From Alphaproteobacteria bacterium (GTDB lineage: Bacteria > Pseudomonadota > Alphaproteobacteria > SHVP01): DNA of 64,000 bases. The stretch spans positions 121,396-185,395 of the forward strand of contig JAVJOO010000004.1 in assembly GCA_040216735.1 (NCBI GenBank), read 5' to 3'. The notes beneath the pieces are model-generated. The model saw only the letters and a list, made by a program, of their open reading frames with translations, ran no database searches and was not told the origin of the DNA. This document shows positions 28,638-30,677 of this stretch, in pieces (the first letter of the stretch is position 1; each line of letters starts with the position of its first letter). The translations under genes and the position numbers were made by a program.

Positions 28638-29426
28638 ATGGCCTACAAAGACATAAAGTATGCGGTGCGTGCGGGCGTCGCGACCATCACGATCAATCGG
28701 CCGCAGGTGCACAACGCTTTTCGCGGGCAGACTTGCGAAGAAATGGTCGATGCCTTCAACAAGGCGGCCTGGGACGACGACATCGGTGTCATCGTTCTGA
28801 CGGGAGCGGGCAAGAAAGCCTTCTCGTCTGGCGGCGACCAGGGCGCCCACGACCATGTCTATGACGGACGGGGCACCATCGGGTTGCCGGTCGAAGACCT
28901 GCATTCGATCATGCGCGATGCGCCCAAACCGGTGATTGCCAAGGTGCGCGGCTGGTGCATCGGCGGGGGCAACGTACTGGCGACGATCTGCGATCTCACG
29001 ATCGCGGGAGAGAGCGCGATCTTCGGCCAGGTTGGCCCGAAAATGGGATCGATCGACCCAGGATTCGGCACCAACCTTTTGGCGCGTCATGTCGGCCAGA
29101 AGAAAGCCAAGGAAATTTGGTTTCTTTGCCGCCGCTACAGCGCGTTCGAAGCGATGGAGATGGGGCTCGTCAACGCGGTCGTTCCTGATGCGCAACTCGA
29201 TGCCGAGGTGCGGCGCTGGTGCGACGAAATTCTGGAAATGAGCCCGACGGCAATCGCGTTAGGCAAGCGGGCATTCAACGCCGAGACCGAATCGATTCGC
29301 GGTCTTTCCAATTTGGGCAACATCGCGGTGCGGCTGTACTACGATTCCCCCGAAGGTCGCGAAGGCGAACGTGCTTTTCGCGCTAAGCGCAAACCCCGTT
29401 TCAGGAAGGTGGCGCAAAAGCGTTGA
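28638..29426 (+). CDS. Crotonase-fold enzyme, MenB / BadI-like (DHNA-CoA synthase or 2-ketocyclohexanecarboxyl-CoA hydrolase family)
   Basis: VLTGAGKKAFSSGGDQ and GWCIGGGNVLATICDL are MenB/BadI-type crotonase motifs. The start is 2 nt after the ligase stop. Confidence 0.7.
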   Translation: MAYKDIKYAVRAGVATITINRPQVHNAFRGQTCEEMVDAFNKAAWDDDIGVIVLTGAGKKAFSSGGDQGAHDHVYDGRGTIGLPVEDLHSIMRDAPKPVIAKVRGWCIGGGNVLATICDLTIAGESAIFGQVGPKMGSIDPGFGTNLLARHVGQKKAKEIWFLCRRYSAFEAMEMGLVNAVVPDAQLDAEVRRWCDEILEMSPTAIALGKRAFNAETESIRGLSNLGNIAVRLYYDSPEGREGERAFRAKRKPRFRKVAQKR

Positions 29427-30291
29427 GGGCGTCGGTTCTCGGTATCGACTCTTCGGCGATAAGGGCCCGCAGGTGATCGAGGGCGGCGGCGAGGTCGTCG
29501 CTCTTGTCGTCGCTGCGATAGACCGCAAATGCCGGTCGCGTGAATGCCGGGGCCGCGGCAATCCTGAATAGGATGCCTCGTTCGATTAGGGGCTGCACGA
29601 CTCGCGATGGGAAGTAACCAGCGCCGCCAAATTCCAAGATGTATTGGAGGCCGATCACGCCGACACTGACCTGGAGGCCGGCGGCGTCGGTATCGGCAAA
29701 GGTTTGCTGATGACTGTTGAGGAAGGCCGATCCCCAATCGACAAAGACATAGGGAACGTTGGGCGAGTCGGCGTAATTCTGAGCGCTGCTGACTAGAATC
29801 AGCGACTCGTCGAGCAGCGGTTCCACGATGAGGCCCGAACGGGACTCCGGCGAATACAGTACGGCGACATCGAGAAACCCTTCGGTCATCTGTCGCATGA
29901 GGCCCTCCGGTTGATCGACGTCGCCTTGCAGCGCGACATCCGGCATTGCCGTTCTCAGCCGTCCTAGCCAGCGGACCAGAACCCGATCCCACAAACTGAG
30001 TTGTCCCCCGATGCGCAGACTGGCGCGGTAGGTGGCAGGTAGAGCAACCTCCTGCTTTGCCTGTTGCCAAACCCGTAGAATTGCCGTGGCGTGGCGTCTC
30101 AGGCGCCGCCCAGCAGGCGTGAGAACTGCGCCGGCGCGACCGCGGACGAAAAGTTGCCGCCCTAGAGCCAGTTCGAGTTCTTTGATCCGTGCGCTGACCG
30201 TCGACTGGGTAACATTTAGGCGCTCAGCCGCCGCCACGAATGTCCCGGCTTCGATGATCTCCAAGAAGGTGCGTGCTTGGACGTCGTCCAT
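29401..30291 (-). CDS. LysR-family transcriptional regulator
   Basis: N-terminal HTH (FVAAAERLNVTQSTVSARIKELE) plus LysR substrate-binding domain. 296 aa. Confidence 0.85.
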   Translation of the reverse strand: MDDVQARTFLEIIEAGTFVAAAERLNVTQSTVSARIKELELALGRQLFVRGRAGAVLTPAGRRLRRHATAILRVWQQAKQEVALPATYRASLRIGGQLSLWDRVLVRWLGRLRTAMPDVALQGDVDQPEGLMRQMTEGFLDVAVLYSPESRSGLIVEPLLDESLILVSSAQNYADSPNVPYVFVDWGSAFLNSHQQTFADTDAAGLQVSVGVIGLQYILEFGGAGYFPSRVVQPLIERGILFRIAAAPAFTRPAFAVYRSDDKSDDLAAALDHLRALIAEESIPRTDALNAFAPPS

Positions 30292-30299
30292 GTTAATCC

Positions 30300-30314
30300 A
30301 TCGAAAAAAGCGAT
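30300..30314. promoter_or_regulatory. LysR-type T-N11-A box (ATCG-N7-CGAT) in the divergent intergenic region
   Basis: Palindrome atcgaaaaaagcgat a few nt upstream of the LysR start codon, in an unusually AT-rich 115-nt spacer. Confidence 0.3.
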
Positions 30315-30408
30315 AGTAAATACATAAAACATTCGTTTGTTCGATGAAAGGTCTGAGACTACATTTCGTTGTGCCAGCAGATGCTGGTTTTTTTGGAGAA
30401 GACCCTAC

Positions 30409-30516
30409 ATGGACACGAAGAAACCCGGCGCGAAACCCGCCGCGTCCGCGAAGCCCGCTGCAAAACCCGGCATTTCCGCGAAACCTGGCGCAAAACCCGG
30501 TTCGGGAAAGAAATAG
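30409..30516 (+). CDS. Candidate 35-aa Lys/Ala/Pro-repeat peptide (MDTKKPGAKPAASAKPAAKPGISAKPGAKPGSGKK)
   Basis: Below the ORF-track size cutoff. GGAGA Shine-Dalgarno 9 nt upstream of the ATG. Divergent from the LysR gene. A terminator-like hairpin plus U-run lies downstream. A competing antisense ORF (30405..30626, PGFA repeats) lacks a Shine-Dalgarno and uses the rare TTT codon. Confidence 0.3.
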   Translation: MDTKKPGAKPAASAKPAAKPGISAKPGAKPGSGKK

Positions 30517-30637
30517 CTGATCGGTAGCTTATTTTCCGCGGTCCTCCCGGCCTTCGGCGTGGCGCGGAAAAGATCATCGATCGGTTGGAACGGCGCGTGA
30601 CGAACCCCTAACGCGGTCCGCGCCATTTCCAGATCAA

Positions 30638-30677
30638 GGCCGTCCAGCTCTGCTGGACGGCCTTTCTCTATTTTGTG
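30638..30677 (+). terminator. Rho-independent terminator candidate (ggccgtccag-ctct-gctggacggcc then tttctctattttg)
   Basis: 10-bp GC-rich stem followed by a T-rich run. Overlaps the 3' end of the convergent dehydratase gene, so it may act bidirectionally. Confidence 0.45.

Follow-up and report, generated by a model that had tools for sequence, protein, structure and literature searches.

The 64,000 nucleotides (nt) of contig JAVJOO010000004.1 analysed here (positions 121,396 to 185,395, assembly GCA_040216735.1 of an alphaproteobacterium; this whole stretch is called the window, and coordinates without a locus name refer to it) carry, divergent from a gene for a LysR-type regulator, a small unit that is best explained as a LysR-activated transcript of about 300 nt, encoding a polycationic micropeptide and ending in a tail that resembles a small regulatory RNA (sRNA). 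From the sequence evidence, this candidate dual-function RNA is given a probability of roughly 0.6. The reading is carried by the anatomy of the locus, by a reading frame conserved across orthologues, by purifying selection acting on the peptide, by a footprint of operator boxes in front of the unit, and by covariation in its 3′ hairpins. The features of the locus are the following.

29401 to 30291, minus strand: gene for the LysR-type regulator, 296 amino acids (aa), divergent from the small unit (list of open reading frames, ORFs; Pfam)
30300 to 30314, unstranded: box 1, a T-N11-A dyad of the form ATCG-N7-CGAT, atcgaaaaaagcgat / ATCGAAAAAAGCGAT, the presumed high-affinity recognition site of the LysR protein
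30330 to 30346, plus strand: box 2, CATTCGTTTGTTCGATG, the presumed activation site
30337 to 30342, plus strand: −35-like hexamer TTGTTC (form TTGTYC), inside box 2 and thus overlapping it
30360 to 30365, plus strand: putative −10-like hexamer TACATT, 17 nt past the −35-like hexamer
30373 to 30394, plus strand: stem-loop near the predicted 5′ end, GCCAGCAGATGCTGGT, upstream of the Shine-Dalgarno element, with the hairpin at 30373-30388 and then, in most loci, a U-run
30395 to 30399, plus strand: Shine-Dalgarno sequence GGAGA, 9 nt ahead of the ATG (sequence, orthologues)
30409 to 30516, plus strand: small ORF of 35 aa, MDTKKPGAKPAASAKPAAKPGISAKPGAKPGSGKK (in-frame conservation; ratio of the proportions of nonsynonymous and synonymous differences, pN/pS)
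30532 to 30571, plus strand: 3′ stem-loop 1 (SL1), UUUUCCGCG...CGCGGAAAA, with CCUCCC in its apical part (folds, alifold, pair counts)
30586 to 30631, plus strand: 3′ stem-loop 2 (SL2), with a 14-nt loop that contains the invariant CCCCUNACGC (CCCCTAACGC at 30605-30614; folds, covariation)
30636 to 30675, plus strand: intrinsic terminator, a 13-bp GC-rich stem at 30636-30664 followed by TCTCTATTTT / UCUCUAUUUU (terminator scan, compensatory changes)

The translated part runs on the plus strand from the ATG at 30409 to a TAG at 30514-30516, 108 nt in all, and its product MDTKKPGAKPAASAKPAAKPGISAKPGAKPGSGKK follows from both the sequence and the ORF list. An initial annotation of this DNA, made from its letters, had described the GGAGA-N9-ATG start and the 108-nt ORF with this same peptide, a divergent LysR gene starting at 30291 on the minus strand, and an AT-rich spacer with a T-N11-A palindrome; all three descriptions hold, as the start and ORF lie where they were placed, Pfam assigns the regulator both LysR-type domains, and the spacer (30292-30372) has a GC content of 33%, compared to 62.5% for the whole window, with the dyad at 30300-30314. 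The GC-rich stem-loop and T-run that had been placed directly behind the stop codon do form a terminator, but not in immediate succession: about 120 nt separate the stop codon from it, occupied by two further conserved hairpins, SL1 and SL2. Since the terminator sits this far downstream, the small transcription unit is predicted to span about 30372-30675 on the plus strand, with a length of about 300 nt rather than the roughly 200 nt that had been estimated when the structured 3′ half was overlooked. The U-run of the terminator (30663-30675) overlaps the stop codon (30668-30670) and the final codons of PALP, a convergent gene that encodes a dehydratase dependent on pyridoxal phosphate (PLP); on the minus strand the hairpin lacks a U-tract, and the terminator is therefore oriented for the small unit. 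As a side observation, the same hairpin may provide a hairpin-only stop for the convergent dehydratase mRNA.

Orthologous loci were collected by several routes. With the LysR protein as anchor, a genome collection yielded L001, L002, and L003 (92, 85, and 78% LysR identity); a metagenome scan with a degenerate DNA pattern for MDTKKPGAKP found one contig, L008; and L009 and L010 were retrieved via protein look-ups. Together with the window these form a set of seven loci with LysR identities of 78-100%; all known instances of the locus come from a few uncultured alphaproteobacteria, corresponding to about five species-level lineages. The predicted peptides are MDTKKPGAKPASSAKPGAKPGIAAKPGAKPGSVKK in L001, MDTKKPGAKPASSAKPAAKPGVSAKPAAKPGFGKK in L002, MDTKKPGAKPASSAKPGAKPGISSKPASKAGLGKK in L008, MDTKKPGAKPAPSAKPGAKPGISSKPASKPGLGKK in L009, and the 31-aa version MDTKKPGAKPAAKPAGKPAASAKPAAKPVKK in both L003 and L010. 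The initial annotation had named orthologous spacers without a preserved reading frame as the result that would speak against a peptide gene; the comparison was run, and in all seven loci the ATG, the GGAGA at 9-10 nt ahead of it, the frame, and a terminal KK-stop are kept. Insertions and deletions within the ORF are limited to two 6-nt gaps, which distinguish the L003/L010 lineage, whereas indels of 1, 2, and 5 nt occur in the non-coding DNA around it. Among the loci, substitutions accumulate chiefly at third codon positions; between the window and L002, for example, they number 2, 2, and 11 at the first, second, and third positions. Summed over all pairs, the Nei-Gojobori pN/pS is 0.23 in the frame of the ORF and 1.8-2.2 in four other frames; the ORF has remained intact although about 40% of synonymous sites differ (pS 0.415 vs. 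pN 0.095). The ORF is thus very probably a genuine protein-coding gene.

These substitution patterns bear directly on the possibility that the unit is a pure non-coding sRNA, with an incidental ORF and a 5′ half conserved at the RNA level, for example because GAAACCCGG motifs serve as protein-binding sites. Constraint on an RNA would predict neither the variation at third positions, the pN/pS of 0.23, and indels only in multiples of three, nor a preserved ATG with GGAGA at 9-10 nt, a preserved stop position, and constant counts of Lys residues and KP units. This explanation is consistent with the 3′ half, which is clearly a conserved structured RNA, with the ORF-less short units that homologous LysR regulators face elsewhere, and with the folding of the full 310-nt transcript, which is better than that of shuffled sequences (z = −2.9); overall, it appears unlikely.

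The window peptide has nine Lys residues, a net charge of +8, and an isoelectric point (pI) of 10.5; Lys, Pro, Ala, and Gly account for 28 of its 35 residues. Its six KPxx units are KPGA, KPAA, KPAA, KPGI, KPGA, and KPGS, two of them exactly KPAA. A comparison of repeat numbers in related genomes, as the initial annotation had suggested, found six KP units everywhere except in L008 (five); all variants of 31-35 aa retain nine Lys residues, a net charge of +8, and a pI of 10.5 despite their differences in length. The peptide is predicted to be intrinsically disordered and polycationic, and as it has no hydrophobic segment it is probably cytoplasmic. A K/P-repeat pattern search of the 64-kb window found this ORF as the only one of its kind. 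Two upstream in-frame starts, a TTG at 30337 and the ATG of a 56-aa database entry, were considered and rejected, since the stretch from the hairpin to the Shine-Dalgarno sequence contains indels of 1-2 nt, which disrupt the frame from locus to locus.

The earlier statement that this gene is unannotated was borne out: an exact-protein look-up found no record of the peptide, and the JGI and NCBI gene calls on the two orthologous contigs L009 and L010 show nothing annotated in the gap. A word-indexed protein search, with the 59-aa TTG-extended ORF as query, returned one orthologue; the sole true database homologue was called with 56 aa, from an upstream start that is wrong. Pfam contains no family for the peptide and detected no DUF1127, and blastn against plasmids found nothing. 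In searches of genomes, metagenomes, and proteins, no homologue of the peptide was found outside this small clade of uncultured alphaproteobacteria.

The DNA of the ORF is made up of a 30-nt unit (10 codons), present in about 2.7 tandem copies with 76% matches (30420-30500), a pattern suggestive of growth of the coding region through repeat expansion. The same 2.7 copies would be expected if the ORF were a newly born or decaying, lineage-specific expansion that is tolerated and functionless beside a functional LysR-controlled sRNA; the narrow distribution fits this explanation as well, as the ORF occurs in about five species-level lineages with 78-100% LysR identity, the next relatives of the regulator share at most 56% identity, and no such ORF lies beside these more distant homologues. 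A functionless product is nevertheless improbable, considering that the ORF has stayed intact at a pS of 0.415 vs. a pN of 0.095, with start, stop, and Shine-Dalgarno sequence kept in all loci.

The RNA downstream of the stop codon is conserved in structure. Every orthologue that was folded singly is predicted to form the same three hairpins (z = −3.7 to −5.5), and in a five-sequence alignment 12 of 37 pairs have changed on both sides, compared to 5.9 in shuffled and 0-4 in slid controls. Compensatory changes affect three of the six outer pairs of SL1 (alifold, pair counts), and the terminator stem shows them across orthologues as well; the SL2 stem covaries, with AU, CG, and GC all seen at one position, while its loop CCCCUNACGC is invariant in all seven loci. 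These sequence comparisons provide decent but thin evidence that the 3′ hairpins are a selected RNA structure. At the other end of the unit, the 5′ stem CCAGC/GCTGG is invariant in five aligned orthologous loci and was flagged by the scanner as terminator-like; a role of this hairpin and its U-run as attenuator or terminator was rejected, because the U-run is not conserved (L003 and L010 have TTCCCAA in its place) and the position of the hairpin is that of the predicted 5′ end. The 5′ stem-loop probably stabilizes the 5′ end or enhances translation.

An ORF placed directly 5′ of a structured RNA on one transcript, and dominated by few amino acids (Lys, Pro, Ala) like classical leader peptides, could also be a cis-acting leader, in which translation governs how stable the downstream RNA is, how it is processed, or whether Rho terminates it, and the peptide has no function of its own. 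The architecture does not favor such a leader: no structural gene under the control of alternative structures was found downstream on the same strand, and the gene that comes next, PALP, is convergent; the folds are three independent hairpins, with no evident alternative pairing of terminator and antiterminator; and the peptide has no PP stalling motif. A pure leader would also not need an amino acid sequence under purifying selection, with fixed charge and repeat number, and this explanation therefore ranks as unlikely.

The evidence for regulation comes from the spacer. The regulator contains the Pfam domains HTH_1 (3e-19) and LysR_substrate (1.4e-17); its nearest NCBIfam model is HdfR, at 129 bits and thus below the family cutoff of 240. 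The pattern ATCG-N7-NGAT was found in 12 loci whose LysR proteins share 50-100% identity, and the start-to-start distance from box 1 to box 2 is 32 nt in all ten loci (LysR identity 50-100%) where the pattern search found both; L001 and L002 keep box 2 as one-base variants that the pattern missed and that were recognized by eye. Box 2, in a AATTCGTTTGTCC-like form, is also conserved in alignments A1 and A4. The box-sharing loci with 50-56% LysR identity lie in varied neighborhoods (HSP90/DUF1223/TetR in some, tRNA synthetase/PHO4, ABC transporter). At the −10 position the orthologues have CTACAT, CTATAA, GTACAT, or CTACAA. The −35-like and −10-like hexamers place the predicted transcription start near 30372 and, consequently, the center of box 1 (30307) at about −65. 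A box near −65 corresponds to the classical geometry of LysR-type transcriptional regulators (LTTRs), and the hallmarks of a classical LTTR divergent promoter are found together here: the domains, the T-N11-A dyad near the predicted −65, and a second site at fixed phase. By its sequence features, the regulator is predicted to bind the spacer and to activate the unit; the earlier suggestion that it controls its divergent neighbor gains support from this phylogenetic footprint, in which the box spacing remains identical down to about 50% LysR identity.

More distant homologues of the regulator extend this pattern. Beyond the clade of 78-100% identity, the next LysR relatives share at most 56%; at 50-56% identity, L011, L012, L016, L021, and probably L017 carry, past box 1 and box 2, a unit without an ORF. 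These sRNA-like units have the same position and orientation relative to the two boxes as the unit in the window, end in a strong terminator, and comprise 100-165 nt of hairpins with C-rich loops (CCCUA, CUCCCUCCCC), among them a loop containing CCCUA on a stem of 7 bp. Their positions are as follows.

L011, 1742-1900 (−): sRNA-like unit
L012, 1242-1385 (−): sRNA-like unit
L016, 1275-1390 (−): sRNA-like unit
L021, 1000-1095 (−): sRNA-like unit
L017, about 1000-1100 (−): probable sRNA-like unit

The features that these units have in common with the tail in the window are limited to the terminator and, as the penultimate hairpin, one whose loop contains CCCUA. In L004, L006, and L005, where the LysR protein is more distant, the place of the peptide or sRNA is taken by a divergent gene for a probably secreted protein of about 95-135 aa, whose N-terminus has a hydrophobic stretch resembling a signal peptide. 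These divergent units suggest that this LysR subfamily typically controls one short unit, often an sRNA.

Under the preferred explanation of a LysR-activated dual-function transcript, the regulator would bind the dyad near −65 and the second box that overlaps a weak −35 hexamer, would activate the small unit in response to a ligand, and would probably repress its own gene. The 5′ stem-loop and the U-rich leader would favor stability and translation, with GGAGA as the ribosome-binding site; the peptide may then bind a polyanion (RNA, DNA, or polyphosphate), by analogy with PhaF, AlgP, and histone H1. The approximately 150 nt past the ORF would form two hairpins with C-rich loops and end at the intrinsic terminator; these 3′ hairpins may function as a base-pairing sRNA, either directly or after processing, and their C-rich loops could bind to ribosome-binding sites rich in G, in the manner of the CcsR and AbcR sRNAs (PMC8034643, PMC7486931). 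The functions of the peptide and of the RNA tail are, in this proposal, modeled on those of their analogues.

For the peptide, the closest analogies are found in larger proteins. The KPAA repeats in the C-terminal domain of PhaF bind RNA directly and activate translation, with lysine mutants as control (PMC12818456), and AlgP, which also has KPAA repeats, associates with polyphosphate granules (PMC9239181). With these Pseudomonas proteins (AlgP is also called AlgR3) and with histone H1 tails the window peptide shares the KPxx motif, the Lys/Ala/Pro composition, and predicted disorder; in contrast to them, it is free-standing, with 31-35 aa, six units, and no folded partner domain, and its context consists of a dedicated LysR regulator and an sRNA-like tail. 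The resemblance to H1, AlgP, and AlgR3 tails that the initial annotation had pointed out therefore stands for motif and composition; demonstrable homology does not follow, as no sequence homology was detectable by Pfam, HMMER, or PDB searches.

Regulators of the LysR type are paired with divergent sRNA genes in OxyR-oxyS and GcvA-gcvB. As in these systems and in VtlR/LsrB-abcR, the LysR-type regulator here adjoins a very short, terminator-ended unit that is its presumed target. VtlR, also of the LysR type, directly activates the abcR sRNA gene as well as small-protein genes (PMC7486931), and a LysR regulator dedicated to a tiny gene is thus not as unexpected as had first been assumed. The systems differ in their operators: the VtlR box is GCAT-N3-TG-N3-T (PMC7486931), whereas the box here is ATCG-N7-CGAT, and inspection found no GCAT on either strand of the spacer (30292-30372); the regulator itself is nearest to HdfR, below the cutoff. 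Rfam found no match to ar15/AbcR, OxyS, or GcvB in the region or the window.

At the level of the whole system, ccaF1-ccsR comes closest. The RNA-binding protein CcaF1, small and basic, shares its transcript with sRNAs that bear anti-Shine-Dalgarno loops and originate from its 3′ UTR (PMC8034643). In these “cuckoo” loci (CcaF1-CcsR), which occur in Rhodobacter and Sinorhizobium, the small basic ORF precedes, as here and likewise in an alphaproteobacterium, C-rich, anti-Shine-Dalgarno-like hairpin loops and a terminator (PMC8034643). The CcsR loci are driven by RpoHI/HII, whereas the unit in the window presumably depends on a LysR-type regulator; its loops are CCUCCC and CCCCUNACGC / CCCCUAACGC instead of CCUCCUCCC, and it encodes no DUF1127. 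Lacking both DUF1127 and the CCUCCUCCC loops, the locus is not a member of the CcaF1-CcsR family; the Rfam model CcsR1 (RF02791) found no match in the window at E-values up to 10 or at the gathering score, and the ORF-less unit of L016, as the only one, gave a sub-threshold CcsR1 match (29.5 bits vs. a gathering score of 65.3). The dual-function RNAs SgrS/SgrT, RNAIII/hld, SR1/SR1P, and AzuCR (PMC12612679) likewise combine a small ORF and an sRNA-like structured region on one transcript, an arrangement that is predicted here; in contrast to the locus in the window, a KPxx-repeat polycation is not among the examples noted in that review.

Several observations weigh against reading the locus as a LysR-activated dual-function transcript. 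Every locus derives from metagenome-assembled genomes (MAGs) or metagenomes, and only about five of the sequences are independent, so that the statistics on selection and covariation are weak. A sigma-70 consensus scanner called no promoter here, as would be expected for the weak hexamers of an activator-dependent promoter, and the start near 30372 and the −65 position of box 1 are both predicted positions. The PDB search found no match to the peptide, HMMER retrieved from 1.84 billion representative proteins its own orthologue and three unrelated long repeat proteins, and the proposed link to PhaF and AlgP is one of motif and composition. Within the RNA tail, the CCUCCC of SL1 is present in five of the seven loci and lost in L008 and L009, where the sequence is CUUCCG; no Rfam family matched (the region at E-values up to 10, the whole window at the gathering score), and sites complementary to the SL2 loop are not enriched in the window (8 vs. 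13 expected). A match with 28.6 bits to the togavirus-FSE model of Rfam (threshold 40) was discarded as a chance match to the terminator hairpin. Covariance model R1, built from the clade of the window, matched L011 at the right place with 12.2 bits and an E-value of 0.63, which is not significant, and model R2, built from L011, L012, and L016, had no match at 30528-30675 in the window. As neither test was significant, the relationship to the ORF-less units is positional and architectural, and homology is not claimed.

A further point of this kind concerns the opposite strand, where the real gene could be an antisense ORF of 73 aa (30405..30626, minus strand) with the KP frame as its shadow. 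Logan called this ORF on L029 (2166-2387) and L030 (618-839), two contigs with an identical LysR gene; it is open across the overlap in all loci, and its frame, which has the wobble position in common with the plus-strand frame, gives a pN/pS of 0.31, a low value that is explained by this sharing. Yet neither the start codon nor the N-terminal 35-40 residues of the antisense ORF are conserved, L002, L008, and L009 have in-frame stops within it, and its C-terminal end varies from VSM* or VSI* in three loci to read-on in L003 and L008; inspection found no conserved Shine-Dalgarno sequence. It would also have to cross three hairpins with covarying stems, in a region where promoter boxes, Shine-Dalgarno sequence, and terminator are all oriented along the plus strand. 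An antisense gene is thus very improbable; the ORF called by Logan is probably a mis-annotation, a shadow kept open by the shared wobble position, which is also the reason why gene callers either skip the peptide gene or call the shadow ORF instead.

The elements of the candidate dual-function transcript are of known kinds: LTTRs with divergent small genes, dual-function RNAs, and polycationic repeats of the KPAA type. For their combination, and for a free-standing peptide of six KPxx units, no described counterpart was found. If the reading is true, the peptide would be the shortest known free-standing KPAA/KPxx-repeat protein and a minimal natural system for the recognition of RNA, DNA, or polyphosphate by Lys-Pro repeats without a partner domain, and the transcript would be an alphaproteobacterial addition to the small list of dual-function RNAs. 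Since related LysR regulators face units without an ORF, the birth of the coding part might be traceable. In a more far-reaching and rather doubtful version, a widespread alphaproteobacterial LysR-controlled sRNA locus would have gained a micropeptide gene in one uncultured lineage, by expansion of a 30-nt repeat between promoter and hairpins; this would have given rise to a dual-function RNA of recent birth, and its product, a free-standing KPxx polycation or minimal “histone-tail” peptide, would bind RNA or polyphosphate, possibly its own co-transcribed RNA.

Some additional observations concern the neighborhood and the wider LysR family. On the other side of the regulator, the LysR gene and a convergent gene for enoyl-CoA hydratase share about 26-35 nt at their 3′ ends (window 29401-29426; L009 1480-1514; L010 2354-2385), and this overlap is kept in the orthologous loci. 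The ORF-less units beside the LysR homologues with 50-56% identity look like a family of alphaproteobacterial sRNAs under LysR control that is undescribed. The best matches of covariance model R2 lie about 2.3 kb from the peptide gene, in L008 (3952-4029, minus strand) and L002 (525-602, minus strand), with 21.8 and 18.9 bits, E-values of 0.007 and 0.03, and a UCCCUG or UCCCGG hairpin loop; they have no equivalent in the window and may be chance matches or lie inside a gene. The divergent gene for a protein with a signal-peptide-like segment is located about 700 nt upstream of the LysR gene in L004 and L006, which are near-identical contigs of one MAG. Finally, the spacers of L015 (Magnetospirillum sp. 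UT-4; 1250-1400) and of L025 and L027 (800-1150) do not have the box 1/box 2 arrangement and are full of tandem palindromic elements that resemble repetitive extragenic palindromes (REP-like; ATTTTAAATGGAGCCCGGGGGGCCGCGC..GCGGATCCCCCC); shortly upstream of them, and in the same orientation as the LysR gene, L015 has a gene for Ribosomal_S30AE (a hibernation factor).

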